Shown in pieces: positions 3,169-55,127 of a stretch of 64,000 nt of DNA (its first letter is position 1; each line of letters starts with the position of its first letter). Origin of the DNA: Parcubacteria group bacterium LiPW_30 (GTDB taxonomy: Bacteria > Patescibacteriota > Minisyncoccia > Phycocordibacterales > VMEP01); assembly GCA_007375595.1 (NCBI GenBank), contig VMEP01000001.1, positions 255,883 through 319,882 of the forward strand, given 5' to 3'. Made by a program: the position numbers and the translations under genes. The notes beneath the pieces were generated by a model. It ran no database searches. It had not been told where the DNA came from and saw only the letters and a list, made by a program, of their open reading frames with translations.

Positions 3169-4011
3169 ATGAAAACCTACAAACCAACATCACCATCAAG
3201 AAGAAGCATGACAGGCGTAGTATATCGCAATGTTATCACCCATACAGAGCCATTAAAAGCTCTTACCAAGGGTCGCAAGCGAGATAGTGGACGCAACTCT
3301 GCTGGACGCATTACCACTCGCCATAAAGGAGGTGGGCACAAAAGACTCTATCGTGATATAGATTTTAAATATAATAAATTTGATATTCCAGCAAAGATTG
3401 CGAGCGTTGAATACGATCCAAACCGCACTGGTTTTATAGGTCTCGCTGTTTATAAAGACGGAGAGAAGCGTTATGTGCTTTTACCTAAATCTGTTGGAGT
3501 AGGTAACTCTTTTATCGTTAGTGAAACTGCATCGATAACCCCAGGAAATCGCATGCCACTCAAACAAGTTCCTGTTGGTACTTTTGTTTACAACGTTGAA
3601 CTAAAACCAAAGGGTGGTTCAAAAATTGCGCGCGGGGCTGGTGTTTATGTGGAAGTTGTTGCAAACAACGACGGTTACACGCACTTAAAAATGCCATCTA
3701 CAGAAGTTCGAAAAGTTTCTGATAAATGTTACGCATGTATCGGGCAGGTTTCAAACGAAGAACACGGACTTGTAAAAATAGGAAAAGCAGGACGTTCTCG
3801 ATGGATGGGTATTCGCCCAACAGTTCGTGGAACAGCTATGAACCCTGTTGATCACCCACACGGTGGAGGTGAAGGACGCCAAGGACGCGGTCTTCGACGT
3901 GCAAAGAGCAAGTGGGGCAAGCCAACAGGCAAGGGCCAAAAGACACGCGCACCTAAAAAATATTCAAACGTCTTTATTGTTTCAAGACGTAAAGTTGGAA
4001 AGAAACGATAA
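3169..4011 (+). CDS. rplB: 50S ribosomal protein L2
   Basis: Hallmark GRNSAGRITTRHKGGGHKRLYR and C-terminal Gly/Arg-rich tail. Confidence 0.95.
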   Translation: MKTYKPTSPSRRSMTGVVYRNVITHTEPLKALTKGRKRDSGRNSAGRITTRHKGGGHKRLYRDIDFKYNKFDIPAKIASVEYDPNRTGFIGLAVYKDGEKRYVLLPKSVGVGNSFIVSETASITPGNRMPLKQVPVGTFVYNVELKPKGGSKIARGAGVYVEVVANNDGYTHLKMPSTEVRKVSDKCYACIGQVSNEEHGLVKIGKAGRSRWMGIRPTVRGTAMNPVDHPHGGGEGRQGRGLRRAKSKWGKPTGKGQKTRAPKKYSNVFIVSRRKVGKKR

Positions 4012-4145: not shown

Positions 4146-4550
4146 TCAGATGGCATCCTTTTTTCAGCAGTGTGCGGACATTGCGGCGAGTGTTGGGATG
4201 ATCATGAAAATCCGTATCAGTATGGTTGGACGGAAGACATGATGAAACAACGTCAGCCTGGCTTTAAAAAGTCGCTTTATGATTGCCCGGGGTTTCAGGT
4301 CAGAAAGATTGATTTGCCAGACATCATACTTGTTTCTGCAAGACGATTGTTTTTTGGAGAACCCCAATTACCTGTTTTTTGGAAATATCCCGGAATCAAG
4401 TCTGCCGCCGAGCACTGCTTGAAACAAAATCAAGCGAAGTGGGATTCGGCCGAAAGGAAACAGCGGTGGTCAATGTATAGTGACTGTGTGGTCCTTATTG
4501 GCGTTAACCCCAAGACAGGAACATCTGTCGTTGTTGATTGTGGTAGCTGA
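4134..4550 (+). CDS. Hypothetical protein, CxxCxxC N-terminus, GC-rich cassette gene
   Basis: ORF with RBS in duplicated leader; ~50% GC against ~38% background. Confidence 0.45.
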   Translation: MSRESDGILFSAVCGHCGECWDDHENPYQYGWTEDMMKQRQPGFKKSLYDCPGFQVRKIDLPDIILVSARRLFFGEPQLPVFWKYPGIKSAAEHCLKQNQAKWDSAERKQRWSMYSDCVVLIGVNPKTGTSVVVDCGS

Positions 4551-4610
4551 TAAGCCAATTATTGTGTACAAGGTCAGATTTCCGGACGAGTAGTTCGTCG
4601 GTGTAAGATA

Positions 4611-4650: not shown

Positions 4651-4722
4651 CCAAAGGAAACTTACTTGGTCGTTTACAATTTTTTCAAGATTGCGTAGTA
4701 TCACACATAGAGGGAAAGTTCG

Positions 4723-5016
4723 ATGTTTTCTTACTGGGGGATTTCACCAGTGGACGACAAATTTAAACTGTTTCATGAGATTTCTCGGTTTTTACGTACC
4801 GCCCCACAGCCTGCAGTGATTGCGTGGAGAGAAGGGTGGAGCAAAATTACCCTACATCCCGACGGGTTTGAGTCGTGGGATTCGTGTGGGTGTTGTACAA
4901 CTGGATACTCTCCGGGGTGGTATTGCGAAAATCCCAAGGGGTCTTACCGTTGGATCTGTGGTCCCAAAGGAGAGAGCGTCAAAGGAAAAGCCCCAGAAGG
5001 ACTTTGTTGTTTGTGA
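4723..5016 (+). CDS. Hypothetical Cys-rich small protein
   Basis: RBS GAGGGAAAG before ATG; overlapping alternative frame 4820..5032 cannot be excluded. Confidence 0.35.
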   Translation: MFSYWGISPVDDKFKLFHEISRFLRTAPQPAVIAWREGWSKITLHPDGFESWDSCGCCTTGYSPGWYCENPKGSYRWICGPKGESVKGKAPEGLCCL

Positions 5017-8896: not shown

Positions 8897-9449
8897 AAAC
8901 ATGAAAATAAAAACGACAAAAGAAAAAGAAATAGAAGCCTATAGCAAACTAAAGGAGGAATTTGGCTATAAGAATAAAATGGCTGCACCAAAACTTTCTA
9001 AAGTTGTTATTTCTGTTGGTGTCGGTAATCTTTTGAAAAAAGACAGAACTAAAGGGGATTTCGTAAACGGCAGACTCGGCAAGATAGCTGGACAGAAATC
9101 AGTTGCTCGTGGGGCAAAAAAGGCTATTGCAACCTTTAAATCTAGACAAGGCGACATTATCGGCTACATGGTTACACTTCGTGGAGCACGCATGTACTCT
9201 TTCCTTGAAAAACTTTTCAATGTTGCGCTTCCTCGCACTAAAGACTTTCGTGGTATAAACCGGACCGCTGTTGATGAAATGGGTAATCTTACGATTGGTA
9301 TTAAAGAGCACACAATTTTCCCAGAAACAGCCGATGAAGAACTAAAAGATGTTTTTGGAATGGCTATAACACTTGTTAGTACCGCAAAAAGCAAGAAGGA
9401 AGGAATGGCTTTTTACGAATTACTCGGAACTCCGTTTAAGAGAAAGTAG
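8886..9449 (+). CDS. rplE: 50S ribosomal protein L5
   Basis: L5 core (DFRGI...YSFLEKL...). Confidence 0.95.
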   Translation: MKYKNMKIKTTKEKEIEAYSKLKEEFGYKNKMAAPKLSKVVISVGVGNLLKKDRTKGDFVNGRLGKIAGQKSVARGAKKAIATFKSRQGDIIGYMVTLRGARMYSFLEKLFNVALPRTKDFRGINRTAVDEMGNLTIGIKEHTIFPETADEELKDVFGMAITLVSTAKSKKEGMAFYELLGTPFKRK

Positions 9450-14411: not shown

Positions 14412-15011
14412 ATGGATTTACAAACTTTTATTTTTATCGGACGCTCTGGGTGTGGCAAAGGAACACAGGCTGAATTGTTAAAAAAATACGTAGAAGAACA
14501 TGATACTGAAAAGAGATCGATTTATTACCTTGAAACCGGTGAGCGCTTCAGAAATTTTCTCTCCAAGGATGGTTATTCTAATAAACTAGCGCGTGAAATA
14601 GCAGAGAATTCAGAACTTCAGCCTTCGTTTTTAGCTGTTTCCATGTGGTCAAGTAGTTTTATAGAAAATTTAAACGGAGAAGAGCATGTTTTTATTGATG
14701 GCACTCCAAGAACGTTACCAGAGACATATATATTAGAGACTGCTTTAAACTTCTATAAAAGAGGACGAGCAAAAGTTATTTATATAAATGTTTCTCGAGA
14801 GGAATCAGAAAAAAGATTGCTCGCTCGTGGTAGGAAAGACGATAAGAAAATTGGAGATATAGAAAAAAGATTAAATTGGTTTGATAATGACGTCGTTCCG
14901 GCGGTTATGTATTTAAGTCAAAGTAAGAATCATGATTTTTACGATATAGATGGAGAGCAGTCTATTGAAGATGTGCACAAAGAGCTTATTTCTAAGGTAT
15001 TTTCTGGTTAA
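14412..15011 (+). CDS. adk: Adenylate kinase-like nucleoside monophosphate kinase
   Basis: P-loop GRSGCGKGTQAELL; operon position after secY. Confidence 0.7.
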   Translation: MDLQTFIFIGRSGCGKGTQAELLKKYVEEHDTEKRSIYYLETGERFRNFLSKDGYSNKLAREIAENSELQPSFLAVSMWSSSFIENLNGEEHVFIDGTPRTLPETYILETALNFYKRGRAKVIYINVSREESEKRLLARGRKDDKKIGDIEKRLNWFDNDVVPAVMYLSQSKNHDFYDIDGEQSIEDVHKELISKVFSG

Positions 15012-15020
15012 CTAAATTTA

Positions 15021-15062
15021 TTTCCTACAATTATAACGCTATAGCGTTATAATTGTAGGAAA
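15021..15062. repeat. Perfect 42-bp palindrome centred on GCTATAGC
   Basis: tttcctacaattataacgc TATA gcgttataattgtaggaaa; no flanking U-tract. Confidence 0.8.
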
Positions 15063-15079
15063 TAAAAAAAACAAAAACA

Positions 15080-15850
15080 ATGGCAACAATACTAACAACT
15101 GAAGAAGAATATGAGATTGTCCGCGAAGGGGGGAAGCGTCTTGGCTTGATACTTCAGGTTTTGGCATCTTCTGCAAAACCAGGTGTTACGACAATGGAAC
15201 TTGACCAAATTGCACACAAATTAATTACCAAAGAAGGTGATAAACCAGCTTTTCTTGGTTATACCCCCGATGGGTCCGATAGACCATACCCAGCGACTCT
15301 CTGTATTTCTGTAAATAGCGAAGTGGTACACGGAATTCCCAAAGATAGAGTTTTAAGAGATGGAGACATTGTTGGTCTTGATTTAGGTCTTTCACACAGA
15401 GGTCTTTATGTTGATAGCGCTATAACGGTTCCAGTTGGAGAGATAGACGATGTTGCAAAAAGACTTATCGAAACCACAAGAGAGGCGCTTTCTCGTGGAA
15501 TGAATGTTGTTAAAGTAGGGGCAAGGATTGGAGATATTGGCGAAGCGATTGAAAGATATGTTAAGACAGAAGGTTTTGCTATCGTTAAAATTTTAGGAGG
15601 GCACGCTCTTGGCGTACACCCACACGAAGAGCCATACATACCAAATTATGGTAAACGCGGCACTGGGCCAATTCTTAAAGAAGGAATGCTTATTGCGCTT
15701 GAACCAATCGTTAATGAAGGATCTCCGAAAGTAACCCTAGATGAAAAAGATGGATATACCTTCCATACAGAAGATGGCAAACGCTCCGCACACTTTGAAC
15801 ATACTCTACTCATAACAAAAGATGGCGCAGAAATAATAACTCTCGTTTAA
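15080..15850 (+). CDS. map: Methionine aminopeptidase type I
   Basis: Pita-bread fold metal ligands (D..D..H..E..E) in conserved context. Confidence 0.9.
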   Translation: MATILTTEEEYEIVREGGKRLGLILQVLASSAKPGVTTMELDQIAHKLITKEGDKPAFLGYTPDGSDRPYPATLCISVNSEVVHGIPKDRVLRDGDIVGLDLGLSHRGLYVDSAITVPVGEIDDVAKRLIETTREALSRGMNVVKVGARIGDIGEAIERYVKTEGFAIVKILGGHALGVHPHEEPYIPNYGKRGTGPILKEGMLIALEPIVNEGSPKVTLDEKDGYTFHTEDGKRSAHFEHTLLITKDGAEIITLV

Positions 15851-15924: not shown

Positions 15925-18675
15925 ATGGTTTTAAACTTTAACGGAGAAAGTCATGAAAAATTTGTAAATCCCGAAGAGGAGATTAATTTTTTGCGTGAAC
16001 GTCTTGCAGAAAAGGAAAAAGAAGCCTCGTTTGGTAAAGAATCGGCGCCAGTTAATCATGAAAAAGAGGTTATTAGGGAATATTCGGAAAAGCCAGCTCG
16101 GGAAATTTTGCATCACGAAAAGGTGCTGGGGGAACAAGAGGTAGAGCGTATCGTTCTTGATTTGAAGCCAGAAGAGCACGATAAACAAATGGAGGAGCTT
16201 CTAGGACTTCTTATTGAAAAAGGTGCTCGTAACACTATTTCAGTTGTGGAGAAGATGGATAATCCCCACATAACTGACGACTTTCACAGAATACTTGTTC
16301 AATATGTTAAAAGCGTAGGAAAAGTTCCAGACTTAGAAAAAGATAAACAAGTTTGGAAGGCGGTACATATGCGTCTTTATGAAATCCTTCTTCCAGAAGG
16401 AGACGCAGAAAAGCAGGCAAAAAGCTTTAAAGAAATTGTTACGATAATGGAACAGTTTTACGCTGGGATGCTTTCTGTTTCCGATGGTCGAGATAATTTT
16501 CCAGGGAAGAATTATTTTACGCTTGAGATAGCTTTGTCTAATCAAAGCAGTGAAATAGTTTTTTACGCTTCTGTTCCTGATGATAAGAGTGGTTTGTTGG
16601 AAAAACAGTTACTCGGTTTATATAAAGACGCTCGAATTAGGGAGGTAAAGGATGATTATAATATTTTTAACGAAAAGGGAGCATCTTTGGGCGCCTACGG
16701 AGCTTTCACAAAAAGTCAGGTCTATCCAATAAAAACATATGCAGATTTTGAACATGATCCACTTCCGGTAATTCTTAACGTTTTTTCTAAACTTAAAAAT
16801 AAAGGAGAGGGGGCGGCAATTCAATTTTCAGTTTCTCCTGTTGGTGATTATTTCTTGAAAAGATACGGAAGAGTGCTTGACGATTTAAAACGAGGAGTGC
16901 CAAAAGATGAAGCAACAAATATTTCGCCAACTGTCGGACAAGAGGTGGGGAGGTTTGCCAAGGAACTCATTATGGGTGTTTCTGTGCCTAAAAAAATTGA
17001 TGGGAAAGAGGTTATTGATGAAGACGCGGTAAAATATGTTTCGGAAAAAATTAGTAGCACTATTGTTAATACAAACATTCGAGTAATTGCTTCCGCAGAG
17101 ACAACCTTGCGCGCTGAAGAAATTTTAGGTGAACTACAATCGGCTTTTAATCAATTCACAGATACTAAAGGAAATGGTGTTGAGTTTAAGTCGTTAAAAC
17201 GCCACGACCTGTTGAAGCTTTTTCAAGAATTTTCTTATAGGCTATTTTCTCAAGATCATTCTTTGCCGCTCAACCTAAAAGAACTTACCACAATGTTCCA
17301 TTTTCCAGAGCAGGTTTCGTCGGCGCCACAACTAAAACAAGCCCGTTCCACGACAGCGCCTGCACCGCTTGATGCTCCAACCTACGGGACACTTCTTGGA
17401 ATAAATAAACACCGTGGAGAAAATAAGGAAATTTTTATTACCGACGAAGATCGAATGCGTCACTTTTATGTTGTCGGACAAACAGGCACTGGTAAGACCG
17501 CAATCATGAAGAACATGATTATTCAGAATATTAAAGCTGGGCACGGGGTGTGCATGATAGACCCACACGGAACCGATATTGAGGATATTTTAGGAAATAT
17601 TCCACCTGAGAGAGAAAAAGACGTTATTTATTTTGACCCAGCTTACACAGAAAGAGTGATGGGTTTGAACATGCTGGAGTATGACCAAACTCGACCAGAG
17701 CGGAAAACTTTCGTGGTTAACGAGTTGATTTCGATTTTTAATAAATTATTTGATATGAAAGTTGCTGGCGGACCAGCATTTGAACAGTACTTCAGAAACT
17801 CTGCTCTTTTGGTTATGGAACACCCAGAATCTGGCAGCACTCTTCTTGAAATTGTGCGTGTTTTGGCTGACAAATCTTTTCGTGACATGAAATTGTCTTA
17901 TTGTAAGAATCCAGTGATTACGCAGTTTTGGCAAAACGCGATTAAGACAAGCGGGGAGCAGTCGCTCGCCAACTTTGTCCCTTATATCTCAAGCAAATTT
18001 GATCCATTTTTATCAAACGATATTATGCGTCCAGTTATTGCTCAAGAAAAATCATCATTTAATTTTAGGCAAATAATGGATGAGAAAAAAATACTCTTGG
18101 TTAATTTGTCTAAAGGGAGGTTGGGAGATTTAAACGCCAATTTAATAGGGCTTATCTTGGTTGGCAAGATTCTTATTGCCGCGCTTTCTCGTGTTGATAT
18201 TGTTGGCGGAAAACCTGCTGATTTTTATTTATACATTGATGAGTTCCAAAATATAACCACTGACTCAATTTCCACAATCCTTTCAGAAGCGCGAAAATAC
18301 AGATTATCTCTAAATGTTGCCCATCAATTTATTAAACAACTTGATGAAAAAACAAAGAACGCTATTTTCGGCAACGTTGGTTCAATGGCGGTGTTTCGTG
18401 TTGGTAGTGAGGATGCAGAATTTTTAGAGAAACAACTTGCGCCAGTTTTTTCTGCAAGAGATATTATGAATTTGGACAATTATAACGCTTACGTGAAAAT
18501 GCTTATGAATGGTCAACCAGCCAGAGCTTTTAACATTGAAACGATTTCGCCAAGGAAGGGGGACGTAAATACCGCTACAAGAATTAAAGAGGCGTCTTAC
18601 CAAAAATACGGAACCCCCCGTGTAGAAATTGAGGAGCATATCGCTCAAAAGTATCGCCAAACAGGAACAGTTTAG
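15925..18675 (+). CDS. Large soluble P-loop ATPase: C-terminal VirD4/TraD/TrwB-like (type IV coupling protein family) domain with an uncharacterised ~480-aa N-terminal region
   Basis: Walker A GQTGTGKT, Walker B LYIDEF, downstream RKYR...NVAHQFIKQL resembling the T4CP R..QS..QL motif; no TM segments. Confidence 0.5.
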   Translation: MVLNFNGESHEKFVNPEEEINFLRERLAEKEKEASFGKESAPVNHEKEVIREYSEKPAREILHHEKVLGEQEVERIVLDLKPEEHDKQMEELLGLLIEKGARNTISVVEKMDNPHITDDFHRILVQYVKSVGKVPDLEKDKQVWKAVHMRLYEILLPEGDAEKQAKSFKEIVTIMEQFYAGMLSVSDGRDNFPGKNYFTLEIALSNQSSEIVFYASVPDDKSGLLEKQLLGLYKDARIREVKDDYNIFNEKGASLGAYGAFTKSQVYPIKTYADFEHDPLPVILNVFSKLKNKGEGAAIQFSVSPVGDYFLKRYGRVLDDLKRGVPKDEATNISPTVGQEVGRFAKELIMGVSVPKKIDGKEVIDEDAVKYVSEKISSTIVNTNIRVIASAETTLRAEEILGELQSAFNQFTDTKGNGVEFKSLKRHDLLKLFQEFSYRLFSQDHSLPLNLKELTTMFHFPEQVSSAPQLKQARSTTAPAPLDAPTYGTLLGINKHRGENKEIFITDEDRMRHFYVVGQTGTGKTAIMKNMIIQNIKAGHGVCMIDPHGTDIEDILGNIPPEREKDVIYFDPAYTERVMGLNMLEYDQTRPERKTFVVNELISIFNKLFDMKVAGGPAFEQYFRNSALLVMEHPESGSTLLEIVRVLADKSFRDMKLSYCKNPVITQFWQNAIKTSGEQSLANFVPYISSKFDPFLSNDIMRPVIAQEKSSFNFRQIMDEKKILLVNLSKGRLGDLNANLIGLILVGKILIAALSRVDIVGGKPADFYLYIDEFQNITTDSISTILSEARKYRLSLNVAHQFIKQLDEKTKNAIFGNVGSMAVFRVGSEDAEFLEKQLAPVFSARDIMNLDNYNAYVKMLMNGQPARAFNIETISPRKGDVNTATRIKEASYQKYGTPRVEIEEHIAQKYRQTGTV

Positions 18676-18779
18676 TCTATACGTTTTAATTTAATTATAG
18701 GTGGTAGGGATTTTTTTGTCAGGTTAGTTTCCGTACGGTAAATTACTTTTTAGAGCACAGTCTTTAATTAATAGTTAGT

Positions 18780-18829
18780 TTCCATACCTCCAATCCATGT
18801 GCTATAGCACATGGATTGGAGGTATGGAA
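18780..18829. repeat. Perfect 50-bp palindrome centred on GCTATAGC
   Basis: ttccatacctccaatccatgt GCTATAGC acatggattggaggtatggaa. Confidence 0.8.
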
Positions 18830-18940
18830 TTGTCTTGAGAATTTTAGGAGGTTGCAGTATGTAGGCGTTCTTTGTTAGGATAAGCCCTACATCACACTAA
18901 AAGGTGATAGGGCTAGACCGGGTGTCCCACGGACGCCATA

Positions 18941-19033
18941 GGGCGAACAGTCTGGGTACAGACTGTTTTAGCCCTAAAACATTATTACCAAAATGTTCGG
19001 GCGAACAAATTTTAAATAAAATTTGTTTTAGCC
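18941..19033 (+). repeat. Two tandem copies of the TTCGGGCGA-hairpin-TTTTAGCC motif
   Basis: gggcgaaCAGTCTGggtaCAGACTGttttagcc then ctaaaa..ttcgggcgaaCAAATTTtaaataAAATTTGttttagcc. Confidence 0.6.
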
Positions 19034-19062
19034 ATTAAACAGTTAATTAAATTTCTAAATTT

Positions 19063-19539
19063 ATGGCTCACGAGAAAAAAGAAACTTCGCTTATTATTTT
19101 TAAACCAGATACTCTCCAAAGAGGTTTGCTTGGAGAAATGATTCATCGTTTTGAAAGAAAGGGCTTGAAGATTCGCGGACTCAAAATGATGCAATTAGAA
19201 GATGTGGTTCTTGAAGAGCATTACGCTCATATAAAAGATAAACCATTTTTTGGCGGGATAAAGGAGTATATGAAAGCAACACCAGTCGTTGTTTTTGCGG
19301 TAACAGGAATTAATGCAATCTCGGCAATTCGTACCATTATCGGACCAACAAAAGGACATGAAGCTCCAGCCGGGACAATCCGCGGAGATTTTTCTATGAG
19401 TGGTCAATCAAATATTGTTCATGCGTCAGACTCAAAAGAATCAGCAGAAGCAGAACTAAAGCGTTTCTTTAAAGAAGATGAGTTGTTTGATTATGAACGT
19501 CCTAATTTCCCTTTTATCTACGCAGACGAAGCATTCTAG
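19063..19539 (+). CDS. ndk: Nucleoside diphosphate kinase
   Basis: NDK fold motifs (FKPD..QRGL, active-site His region NIVHASDS). Confidence 0.9.
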   Translation: MAHEKKETSLIIFKPDTLQRGLLGEMIHRFERKGLKIRGLKMMQLEDVVLEEHYAHIKDKPFFGGIKEYMKATPVVVFAVTGINAISAIRTIIGPTKGHEAPAGTIRGDFSMSGQSNIVHASDSKESAEAELKRFFKEDELFDYERPNFPFIYADEAF

Positions 19540-23329: not shown

Positions 23330-23700
23330 GTTTTTTAATGTTCGCCCTTAAAATGCGCGTATAATTTTTTGCTAAAAATTTACTATACTCGCCTCGCCAG
23401 GCTCCGTAATGCATTTTAAGGGCGAACATAGAGATATTAAATACAAAAAACTTTGCTGAATTTTCGCTCTGCTCGATTCGTCAATCTGCGCAAGGTATTT
23501 TAGGGGTGTATGCAGGAAATAAAATACTTAGAAATGCACGTATAATTTTCTGCTGAAAATTTACTATACTCGGCTCGTCAGCCTCCGTCTCTCAATTGCT
23601 TCACTTATCGCAATTGAGCATCGCACTGCGCCCGCCTGCGCGTACACGCGGGCAGGCAATGTTTTTAAATACAAAAAATTGGATTTTTGAAGAAGGAGGA
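23330..23700 (-). mobile_element. Cluster of two partial MITE-family copies, minus orientation
   Basis: 23341-23430 bounded by ttcgcccttaaaatgc / gcattttaagggcgaa inverted repeats; 23536-23690 is the reverse complement of modules seen at 54961-55105 (ctcaattgcgataagtgaagcaattgagagacggaggctgacgagccgag). Confidence 0.55.
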
Positions 23701-24929: not shown

Positions 24930-25005
24930 TGGTGGACCATACCGGATTCGAACCGGTCGCCTCATCCATGCCATGGATGCGCTCTACCAAATGAGCTAAT
25001 GGCCC
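24930..25005 (-). tRNA. tRNA-Ala (anticodon GGC), CCA encoded
   Basis: Cloverleaf folded by hand: acceptor GGGCCAT/ATGGTCC, D-arm GCTC..GAGC, anticodon loop ATGGCAT, T-loop TTCGAAT. Confidence 0.8.
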
Positions 25006-25064
25006 CTAAAATATTTTACAGAAAAATATTCGGGCGACCATTTTCTTTAGAAAATGGTTTAGCC
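25006..25064 (+). promoter_or_regulatory. CTAAAA-hairpin-TTCGGGCGA-hairpin-TTTTAGCC motif, antisense orientation abutting the tRNA-Ala 5' end
   Basis: Read on minus strand the motif ends TTTTAG immediately before mature tRNA G1. Confidence 0.5.
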
Positions 25065-31452: not shown

Positions 31453-31849
31453 GTGGAGATGGGGGGAATTGAACCCCCGTGCAGATGATTTTCAGGCGCG
31501 GGTCTACGAAGCTTAGTTTGTTTTTTTGTTTTCAGCACGAAAGGTTTAAAGCAAACAAAATCCTTTCACACTTATCCTCTATGTTTTTTAGTTAGTATCC
31601 CCGAGAAGTGAAATACGCTTAGTCCGGAAATATAACGCCCGTTCACATCTACCAGACTGCAATGTGACGAACGACCTTAGCTTATTTTATTAAGCGAAAG
31701 CGACGGCGAAGCTGTTTGCCTTAAAATAAGGAGAAACAGATAAGCCCTGTGCAGTTTTGTTTGCACTTATGTTTTGTGACGGTTTAACAAGTCATCACAG
31801 CTTGGCTTGCGCGCGCGAGAATGGTCAGCTGTCTAAGCAAATCATCCCC
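31453..31849 (-). ncRNA. ssrA: tmRNA (ssrA)
   Basis: Minus-strand 5' GGGGATG pairs with 3' CATCTCC; T-arm GGGGGTTCAATTCCCCC; candidate tag reading frame GCA AAC AGC TTC GCC GTC GCT TTC GCT TAA TAA; smpB adjacent. Confidence 0.75.
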
Positions 31850-31910
31850 CTAAAACATTTTTGTTGCAAAAATGTTCGGGCGACCATTTTCTTTAGAAAA
31901 TGGTTTAGCC
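31850..31910 (+). promoter_or_regulatory. CTAAAA-hairpin-TTCGGGCGA-hairpin-TTTTAGCC motif abutting the tmRNA 5' end (antisense as written)
   Basis: 45-nt core identical to the copy at 25019-25064. Confidence 0.5.
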
Positions 31911-34678: not shown

Positions 34679-35671
34679 TTACTTAAGATTTAATCTTTCA
34701 GAAATCAAATCTACTTTTCCACGCACGTTTTCATAGTTAGATTTCTTTGAAGCGTAAAGCTCATAGTCTTTCTTTGTGTGTGAGTCACCACCACCACTTT
34801 CAAGTGCTTTGTATTTTTTTATCAACCCTTTTAGTATTTCTTGTTCTTTTTTTATTCCCTCTTTAAATTTACCTTTAAAGCCCAATCCATAAGTTGTTTC
34901 AAGACCATCAATACGCTTTTGTTTCAAAAGCTTCTCTACTAGTTTTAGTGGAATTTCTTTTGCGGTGGTGAAATAGTGGGCGATAAAGGCAAGACCTCCG
35001 GCATTTCTAATAAGCTTAACGGCTTCGTCTAAATCAGGTCGGTCATCTATTTCAACAGAACATGGTTTAAATGCGTGATGTCCAAGGAAAAGACTATAGG
35101 GTTGTTGATATTCGCCAACGTTCATCATTAAGTCGTATTCTTTTTTAATTTTGTCATTTGTTTTTGAAGCCTCCTTCATTTCCTCTATAGATTTCTTAAA
35201 AATAAGAAGATTCCTCTTTTTTGAAAGAAGGATGGAAACGATATGTGGTTTATTAACTACTCCTTCGCCAGCCTTTCGAAGACACTCTTTTGCTGTTATA
35301 GAAAGACCATATTTTTGAAGATTTAAAACCGTCTTTTCCATGCGAGTAATTCTCAATCGTGATATTTTTTCCGTGAACGCGCGAAGTTTTTTATTTTGAG
35401 GGTTAACAAACAAACCTATTGTATGTAGCGTGCCGTTTCCACGGAGGGCCTCTTTGGGGTGCTTTGCAGAAATTTCAATTCCCATAACCACATTCACAGG
35501 ACCTTTATATTTTTTTAGAAAAGTAAGTGTTTTATCACTCGGTAATACATCGTGGTCAGTAAAAGCTAGAGTTTTGTAACCTAGTTTTTCAGTAAGAGCT
35601 AAGACTTCTTTGTGGCTTAAATCGCCGTCTGAAATTTTTGTATGATTATGTAGGGATTCAATATTTTTCAT
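34679..35671 (-). CDS. PHP-domain metal-dependent phosphoesterase
   Basis: N-terminal H.H..SDG and later His/Asp ligand pattern of the PHP family. Confidence 0.65.
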   Translation of the reverse strand: MKNIESLHNHTKISDGDLSHKEVLALTEKLGYKTLAFTDHDVLPSDKTLTFLKKYKGPVNVVMGIEISAKHPKEALRGNGTLHTIGLFVNPQNKKLRAFTEKISRLRITRMEKTVLNLQKYGLSITAKECLRKAGEGVVNKPHIVSILLSKKRNLLIFKKSIEEMKEASKTNDKIKKEYDLMMNVGEYQQPYSLFLGHHAFKPCSVEIDDRPDLDEAVKLIRNAGGLAFIAHYFTTAKEIPLKLVEKLLKQKRIDGLETTYGLGFKGKFKEGIKKEQEILKGLIKKYKALESGGGDSHTKKDYELYASKKSNYENVRGKVDLISERLNLK

Positions 35672-35744: not shown

Positions 35745-35786
35745 TCCCCCGACTATAATTACGCTATAGCGTAATTATAGTCGGGG
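35745..35786. repeat. Perfect 42-bp palindrome centred on GCTATAGC
   Basis: cccccgactataattacgc TATA gcgtaattatagtcggggg. Confidence 0.8.
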
Positions 35787-35882
35787 GGGGTTATTTAAAA
35801 CTTGTGCAGTTTCTCTTGAAAATGTAAACTTCGATTTACGTTCTATTTATTTATGTAGCCAAGAACTTGATTGAAAATATGC

Positions 35883-35960
35883 GTCCGCCCTTAGCTCAGT
35901 TGGTTAGAGCACAGAGCTTATACCTCTGCGGTCCCTGGTTCGAATCCAGGAGGGCGGACA
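35883..35960 (+). tRNA. tRNA with anticodon TAT (UAU; reads AUA, Ile); acceptor helix can extend to 9 bp
   Basis: Cloverleaf folded by hand: D-arm TAGCTCAGTTGGTTAGAGC, anticodon stem CAGAG/CTCTG, loop CTTATAC, T-loop TTCGAAT, acceptor CCGCCCT/AGGGCGG. Confidence 0.6.
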
Positions 35961-54940: not shown

Positions 54941-55127
54941 CCAAAATACCCCCAAAAAACATTGCGCAGTGCGACTGGCTCAATTGCGATAAGTGAAGCA
55001 ATTGAGAGACGGAGGCTGACGAGCCGAGTCGGGGTAGCGCAAATTTCTAGCAAGAAATTATGCGTGACCGAGCATAGTAAATTTTTAGCAAAAAATTATA
55101 CGCGTTTTTTGGGGGTATTTTAAAAAA
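54941..55127. mobile_element. MITE-like element, long copy; perfect 18-bp terminal inverted repeats
   Basis: ccaaaatacccccaaaaaac ... gttttttgggggtattttaa; internal modules shared with 1116, 23536-23690 (reverse complement), 59842-59937, 57740-57800. Confidence 0.65.

Follow-up and report, generated by a model that had tools for sequence, protein, structure and literature searches.

The window, the whole 64-kb stretch of DNA that was analysed, carries three long palindromes, P1, P2 and P3, each located between genes. It belongs to a Patescibacteria (Paceibacterota-type) metagenome-assembled genome of groundwater-type origin. P1 lies between adk and map, in a secY-adk-map block that is followed directly, after map, by the gene for a 916-aa TraG/VirD4/HerA-like ATPase. 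P2 is found between this gene and ndk, and P3 occupies a divergent region between a PHP-domain gene and a tRNA gene. The features are as follows:

14412-15011: adk
15003-15072: P1-carrying block, in place of a 6-bp junction (a stretch unaligned by BLAST) of the related strain L002
15017-15066: P1, 50 bp, 21-nt arms plus octamer; centre GCTATAGC at 15038-15045; half-sites CCTACAAT at 15024-15031 and ATTGTAGG at 15052-15059
15080-15850: map
15925-18675: TraG/VirD4-like gene
18687-18845: P2-carrying inserted block, about 160 bp, window-specific in the alignment with L001 and L002
18780-18829: P2, 50 bp; centre GCTATAGC at 18801-18808; half-sites CCTCCAAT at 18787-18794 and ATTGGAGG at 18815-18822
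19063-19539: ndk
34679-35671: PHP-domain gene, minus strand
35746-35787: P3, 42 bp, 17-nt arms; centre GCTATAGC at 35763-35770; half-sites CCGACTAT at 35749-35756 and ATAGTCGG at 35777-35784
35885-35959: tRNA-Ile(UAU), plus strand

Sequence and context of the three palindromes

P1, P2 and P3 are perfect palindromes with zero spacer and are the longest perfect palindromes of the window. An earlier note had reported three perfect palindromes built on one self-complementary octamer, and this description holds, with GCTATAGC at all three centres. Its coordinates were right for P2 and needed correction for the other two: P1 covers 15017-15066 instead of 15021-15062, and P3, placed there at 35745-35786 with 19-nt arms, covers 35746-35787 with 17-nt arms. 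The octamer was found three times in the window, against 0.26 occurrences expected, each time at the centre of a palindrome and nowhere else, and none of 100 shuffles reached three copies. These shuffles, together with the viral-contig control described below, ruled out a chance or generic motif.

The other long palindromes in the window belong to the canonical class of bidirectional terminators, built as AACAAAAAA-stem-TTTTTTGTT. When both strands were inspected, no real T-tract was seen after P1, P2 or P3, so the G+C stem plus U-tract of an intrinsic terminator is found at none of them, and P3 is flanked by the 5' ends of its neighbouring genes. Since P1-P3 lack a T-tract while canonical terminators are present in the same genome, and since P3 stands in a divergent context, canonical termination was ruled out, as the earlier note had argued, and the palindromes must be something else. 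In single-stranded DNA folding, each palindrome formed one hairpin with a TATA loop, with free energies of -21.8, -26.8 and -21.4 kcal/mol for P1, P2 and P3 and z-scores of -13, -12 and -10, respectively. The sigma-70 consensus scan called no promoter within P1-P3. A scan of the window with the Rfam 15 covariance models brought only tRNAs and tmRNA to the gathering score, and around P2 it returned only sub-threshold matches to generic miRNA hairpins.

The arms differ in sequence, as had been noted before, but they are not unrelated. The arms of P1 and P3 adjoining the core are identical at 10 of 14 positions, and the motif CCKMCWAT at -18 to -11 from the centre is common to P1 (CCTACAAT), P2 (CCTCCAAT) and P3 (CCGACTAT). 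All three have C at positions 14, 17 and 18, giving CCNNC-N26-GNNGG, and within this one genome they vary at positions 10, 13, 15 and 16, each change being mirrored on the opposite arm. To judge from these sequences, P1-P3 are diverged copies of one element family. No additional degenerate copies were detected in the window, whether as octamers with one mismatch or, around any centre, as arms complementary at 14 or more of 17 positions, a level that mononucleotide shuffles reached at 0.4 sites per window.

Comparison with two close strains, L001 (SecY 98% identical) and L002 (SecY 97%), showed that the sites come and go. P1 is identical in L001 and absent from L002, while P2 is present in the window only, both strains being without it. 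In the window and in L001, the P1 block gives adk a new stop codon and map an A-rich leader in which no Shine-Dalgarno (SD) sequence is obvious; in L002 (12033-12038, versus 15003-15079 of the window), the two genes overlap (TAATAATGA) and a GAGGGA SD sequence precedes map. In the P2 block, the outer left arm is directly repeated over 14 nt (18723-18736 versus 18774-18787, 13 of 14 identical), and no similarity of this block to any other compared sequence was found. No target-site duplication or clean insertion boundary was seen at P1 or P2. P3 is kept in the orthologous loci L229 and L236, where the flanks are about 92% identical and where a compensatory change from C:G to T:A at ±21 affects both arms. 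Identical cores also recur at unrelated places. The 40-bp core of P1 is found downstream of groEL in locus L211, and the 34-bp core of P3 is identical both to the palindromes flanking a PaaX-like gene in L150 and to a solo copy (position 3247) in L157, a contig that bears such a gene cassette as well.

No remnant of a gene cassette was found in the secY-adk spacer. An extra 1.2-kb segment beside P1 in L001 was considered as a possible mobility gene and rejected, because it encodes a secreted repeat protein; this 373-aa protein (L001 3882-5003) is inserted ahead of the TraG/VirD4/HerA-like gene. Related strains also have many small additional ORFs between their ribosomal-protein genes.

Several other elements were observed in or near the window. 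In the P2 block, about 60 bp upstream of P2, the consensus scan returned a promoter-like back-to-back pair at 18694-18744, with CTGACA-17-TATAAT on the minus strand (11 of 12 matches) and TTGTCA-17-TAAATT on the plus strand. Upstream of ndk (18935-19045), there are two tandem units of the form GGGCGAACA-[hairpin]-TGTTTTAGCC, whose stems differ and are each perfectly paired; L001 has one such unit and L002 none, and there was no Rfam match. They may be a leader element or, alternatively, a small hairpin unit that is mobile or can expand. The 22-bp perfect palindrome ACCATTTTCTTTAGAAAATGGT occurs at 25037-25058 and 31883-31904, 32-34 bp upstream, on the minus strand, of tRNA-Ala (24930-25005) and tmRNA (31453-31849), and may be a promoter or operator element shared by these two stable-RNA genes. 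A 28-nt hairpin, CTCAATTGCTTCACTTATCGCAATTGAG, is present twice at a distance of 31 kb, once as its exact reverse complement (23591-23618 and 54979-55006). About 2.3-5.0 kb past the right end of the window, on a contig 100% identical to the window end (L263 6459-9111), radC is followed by a pair of neighbouring genes for N6/N4 DNA methyltransferases.

A palindrome family in Patescibacteria

The first relative outside the window was a 40-bp perfect palindrome with the same GCTATAGC centre in the Taylorbacteria locus L019, accompanied by a second, imperfect palindrome with compensatory differences. Scanning metagenomes with the inner 18-mer ATWACGCTATAGCGTWAT gave 116 contig stretches, in which 96 of the 154 occurrences of GCTATAGC stood at the centre of a perfect palindrome spanning 32 bp or more (16 nt or more per arm). 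In the viral-contig control, performed with the P1 core 14-mer AACGCTATAGCGTT, symmetry did not exceed 13 nt per arm in any of 101 stretches. The earlier note had named as its refutation an octamer that occurs at random frequency and outside palindromes, and both counts came out the other way.

After near-identical copies had been collapsed, 71 non-redundant members were available for the analysis of covariation. Positions 1-17 from the centre were 93-100% Watson-Crick paired and positions 10-17 included all four pair types, and beyond position 17 complementarity fell abruptly to 77%, 69% and 49%. Because members were retained at 12 or more of 16 complementary positions, the percentages are somewhat inflated by this filter; the count of 96 in 154 and the boundary at position 17 are independent of it. 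Among the 923 pairs at positions 5-17, there were one G·T, five A·C and 25 other mismatches. Wobble pairs thus have no advantage over other mismatches, and the constraint is one of strict Watson-Crick symmetry, unlike the pattern of a conserved RNA.

A typical site consists of the invariant centre GCTATAGC, A/T-rich conserved inner arms with the consensus (T)ATAATTAC, and lineage-specific outer half-sites at about positions 13-18; its symmetric core measures 2 x 17 bp. As the sample was chosen on its inner arms, conservation at positions 5-9 is partly by design; in loci reached through the protein described below, position 5 is T or C and the inner arms are variable. Outer arms are alike among copies of one contig, and no conserved terminal tetranucleotide was found among the 71 members.

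According to a simple longest-ORF caller, which gives only crude gene contexts, the 71 classifiable sites comprise 40 between tandem genes, 20 between convergent genes and 11, besides P3, between divergent genes. Of the 96 non-redundant sites, 23 lie within one gene's length of a contig end. The genes beside solo sites had no functional theme (tRNA synthetases, Ddl, RecR, SHMT, MurB, GroEL, S6, L10). The family is widespread in Patescibacteria and apparently undescribed: a non-exhaustive literature search for the octamer, for PaaX together with Cas2 and for palindromes of the Candidate Phyla Radiation (CPR) found no description of the motif or of its gene association.

Other long perfect palindromes, unrelated to this family, were noticed between ribosomal-protein genes of other Patescibacteria, in L017, L010, L004 (12591-12656) and L009 (2848-2898). 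L017 has 29-31-bp perfect hairpins with a TTCG/TTTG centre at 1382-1410, 2153-2181, 4530-4558 and 9359-9389, two copies of which flank rpsC, and L010 has a pair of 63-68-bp palindromes (3328-3395 and 4692-4754) around rpsQ/rplN. Long intercistronic hairpins may be general in Patescibacteria.

The bracketed gene and the geometry of its sites

About one-third of the family sites touch a conserved ORF of about 190 aa, which is bracketed by paired palindromes 650-780 bp apart. The linkage was also seen from the side of the protein: in six of six homologues chosen by protein identity alone, GCTATAGC was present on both flanks, preceding the start by 28-64 bp and following the stop at a distance of 22-90 bp. 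Contigs L157, L187 and L213 each bear flanking copies, solo copies or both, and two paralogues on a single 476-kb contig each have a separate arm type.

The encoded protein combines a winged helix-turn-helix with the Pfam domain PaaX_M ("PaaX central Cas2-like domain", E about 1e-20) and also exceeds the NCBIfam cut-off for Cas2 (30 versus 24.5 bits). Its best sequence (profile) match in the PDB was E. coli PaaX (8a39). When the AlphaFold model was searched with Foldseek, PaaX and Rv0674 were the top matches, followed by Cas2 and VapD; the pLDDT of this model was about 80 for residues 57-189 and below 50 for residues 7-56. A hydrophobic N-terminal segment may be either a membrane anchor or a piece of the winged-helix core. 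The protein matched only PaaX_M, Cas2 and wHTH models and not the HUH/Y1 transposase. It has no PaaX_C effector domain and its gene has no paa genes nearby. An invariant Asp in the motif IFDI is kept, at the position of the catalytic Asp of Cas2. A supposed distinction, that E. coli PaaX has no acidic residue at the Cas2 catalytic position, was dropped because the alignment shows Glu.

At least 2595 homologues (clusters at 90% identity) were found, all of about 190 aa, and wherever the source name gave a taxon it was of the Patescibacteria group or simply "bacterium". Annotation pipelines automatically name these genes "Cas2" or "PaaX". No cas genes were present near the gene in the gene lists of seven 20-kb loci, and in view of these lists the name "Cas2" would be a systematic misannotation. 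Similar recognition-helix sequences go with similar half-sites, a correlation that shared ancestry could also give.

A PaaX-like gene was found neither in the 64-kb window nor in the roughly 19 kb adjoining it (about 10 kb at each end, one side taken from a strain with 98% identity), nor in the L001 and L002 loci; we assume that the source genome carries one. Six 20-kb loci around six homologues (about 120 kb, of which about 80 kb belong to the clade with imperfect sites and about 40 kb surround the perfect sites of L256/L257) contained no solo copies. Divergent paralogues carry other flanking motifs in the same layout, such as GGTACC...CTGCTATCGCA...GGTACC. Two divergent PaaX_M paralogues, at L266 2870-3343 and L268 4662-5222, lie between the IleRS gene and an MBL-fold gene and have flanking repeats of their own, L266 showing GGTAYC...CTGCTATCGCA...GGTACC and L268 showing CACGGCCGTTG on each flank.

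In one clade (L223, L259, L266-L268), the gene order GlyRS, PaaX-like gene, peptidase M16 is conserved and the flanking sites are not perfect palindromes: pairing holds at positions 1-6, gives way to a 6 x 6 asymmetric stretch at positions 7-12 and resumes at positions 13-19. The outer half-sites in L267 and L268 read TTGTA-N26-TACAA. PaaX is known as a repressor in E. coli and Pseudomonas. The operator of E. coli PaaX is TGATTC-N27-GAATCA, with 6-bp inverted repeats, and PaaX represses its own promoter Px (PMC9493321). Inverted half-sites about 26-27 bp apart are thus found in the window (CCNNC-N26-GNNGG) as well as in L267/L268. To judge from sequence, the three-part layout of this clade is what a protein-binding site resembles, and it agrees with the PaaX operator. 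The likeness extends to the partner protein, with its winged helix and PaaX_M/Cas2-like domain, to a total span of about 40 bp and to the placing of a site upstream of the protein's own gene. The differences are equally clear, in that PaaX_C and neighbouring paa genes are lacking, the spacer of the family sites has the invariant centre GCTATAGC, the site is usually a perfect palindrome over its whole 34-58 bp, and there is a second site downstream of the gene along with solo copies dispersed in housekeeping intergenic DNA.

Candidate function of the palindromes

As these palindromes bracket a PaaX/Cas2-like gene elsewhere, they are most likely candidate binding sites of the encoded protein and not terminators. 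From the sequence comparisons, P1-P3 are on balance probably cognate sites of a PaaX-like protein, dispersed as solo copies of a family specific to Patescibacteria/Paceibacterota. The comparisons establish the palindrome family, the covariation within it, its linkage to the gene and its geometry; that the protein binds these sites, that its binding has a regulatory effect and how the copies spread are inferred. A dimer joined via the Cas2-like domain would sit on the centre of the palindrome, and its two winged helices would contact outer half-sites separated by about 26 bp, as in E. coli PaaX. Occupied sites would serve as operators or roadblocks in intergenic DNA, which would place them here ahead of map, ahead of ndk and in the region that separates tRNA-Ile from the PHP gene. 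Among the roles raised in the earlier note, protein recognition by a dimeric regulator is the one favoured by the bracketed gene and the PaaX-operator geometry; a recombination or nicking role is a minority possibility, and nothing was found in support of a restriction-modification or partition-like site.

A plain operator does not fit all of the observations. No operator role is obvious for the 20 of 71 classifiable sites between convergent genes, base reading by a dimer alone leaves the mirrored differences among P1-P3 unexplained, and a perfect palindrome of 42-58 bp far exceeds what a winged-helix dimer requires. That no PaaX-like gene was found in the window, its adjoining 19 kb or the L001 and L002 loci, and that the neighbours of solo sites have no common function, also count against this reading. 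Arm-to-arm correction mediated by the hairpin, or a need for cruciform extrusion, would maintain perfect symmetry, and because the symmetry includes positions that the protein probably does not read, one of these two is the best explanation for it. We further infer that formation of a hairpin or cruciform matters, either functionally or through the correction that keeps long palindromes perfect. As a family site cannot arise through point mutation, copies must come from a copying process.

In the main alternative, the system would be a selfish one resembling REP/REPIN-RAYT elements. The palindromes would then be non-autonomous mobile hairpins, the wHTH-Cas2-like protein would be a mobilising nuclease that cuts or copies them instead of a regulator, and P1-P3 would be recent insertions with little host function. 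The architecture is that of a REPtron, since the palindrome type bracketing the gene is also dispersed elsewhere and is specific to the genome or paralogue; the elements are exclusively intergenic and form hairpins. The same reading would suit the variable presence of P1 and P2 among close strains, the identical cores at unrelated loci, the occurrence of sites in every intergenic type, convergent included, and a domain that scores above the NCBIfam Cas2 cut-off and has the invariant Asp in IFDI. REP and REPIN elements occur in tens to hundreds of copies per genome and carry a GTAG or CGTC tag at one end. The family sites have no GTAG/CGTC tag, their hairpins are perfect where those of REP are imperfect, and their number is low (three in 64 kb and none in the adjacent 19 kb). 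The partner protein is not an HUH Y1 transposase, and we know of no nuclease activity in PaaX-type domains. The conserved synteny of the gene across genomes and the missing target-site duplication or clean boundary at P1 and P2 also weigh against such mobility. Solo copies in the sample were confined to contigs with perfect-hairpin sites, yet none occurred around L256/L257, and for this reason the REP/RAYT-like explanation is kept, as an unlikely one.

In a related and rather improbable scenario, the palindromes would be a novel type of self-propagating hairpin element: GC-TATA-GC hairpins, either extruded or single-stranded, would be bound by the winged-helix Cas2-domain protein and nicked or copied by it, which would maintain the perfect palindromes and now and then spread them through the tiny genomes of Patescibacteria. 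If true, this would be a non-HUH analogue of REPIN-RAYT and a case of the Cas2 fold acting on DNA hairpins outside CRISPR. Integron attC sites offer another comparison, since they too retain palindrome structure while most of the sequence varies, and single genes are bracketed. However, the family has no integrase or array, and attC sites are imperfect, with extrahelical bases and conserved ends, where the family has a conserved centre. Bidirectional terminators likewise are stable intergenic stem-loops, often at 3' ends; the family differs from them in lacking T/A tracts, in its fixed loop and in its presence at 5' ends and in divergent regions. With a minimal, effector-less PaaX, an invariant centre, two-sided sites and no HUH transposase, the system differs from both of its nearest known counterparts, PaaX with its operator and the REPtrons.

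A function at the RNA level appears quite improbable. Hairpins between cistrons would in this case serve RNase III processing, stabilisation or factor-dependent termination, with the conserved UAUA loop bound by an RNA-binding protein, possibly through the RRM-like Cas2 domain. The very stable predicted hairpins, the position of P1, the L019 sites and many more between co-directional operon genes, and the different long hairpins between ribosomal-protein genes of other Patescibacteria would all agree with it. Against it stand the missing U-tract in a genome with canonical terminators, the position of P3 and 11 more sites between divergent genes, the lack of preferential wobble tolerance at positions 5-17, the conservation of the GlyRS-clade sites in spite of their 6 x 6 asymmetric middle, and the absence of an Rfam family above threshold.

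Symmetric, bidirectional sigma-70-type promoters, in which TATAAT in the arms would serve as a -10-like element and the outer half-sites (TTGACA/TTGTAC) as -35-like ones, are very improbable: TATAAT does occur within the consensus inner arm, in the GlyRS clade 17 bp separate the outer half-site TTGTAC/TTGACA from a TAnnnT hexamer on the other side of the centre and P3 stands between divergent genes, but P1-P3 were not called in the consensus scan, TATAAT has opposite orientations in P1 and P3, the -10 element is missing from many members (AAAATTAC arms), 20 sites lie between convergent genes and the full-length symmetry is left unexplained.

Hardly any experimental work is known to us on how Patescibacteria (CPR) regulate their genes or on the dynamics of their genomes. 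Binding of the PaaX-like protein to the palindromes, the reading we favour, would offer a testable protein-DNA pair, in which a family of at least 2595 members is matched with a sharply delimited site that measures 34 bp or more, and would account for one class of the long perfect palindromes in Patescibacteria genomes. The more than 70 covarying sites constitute a natural data set on how perfect palindromes are maintained.
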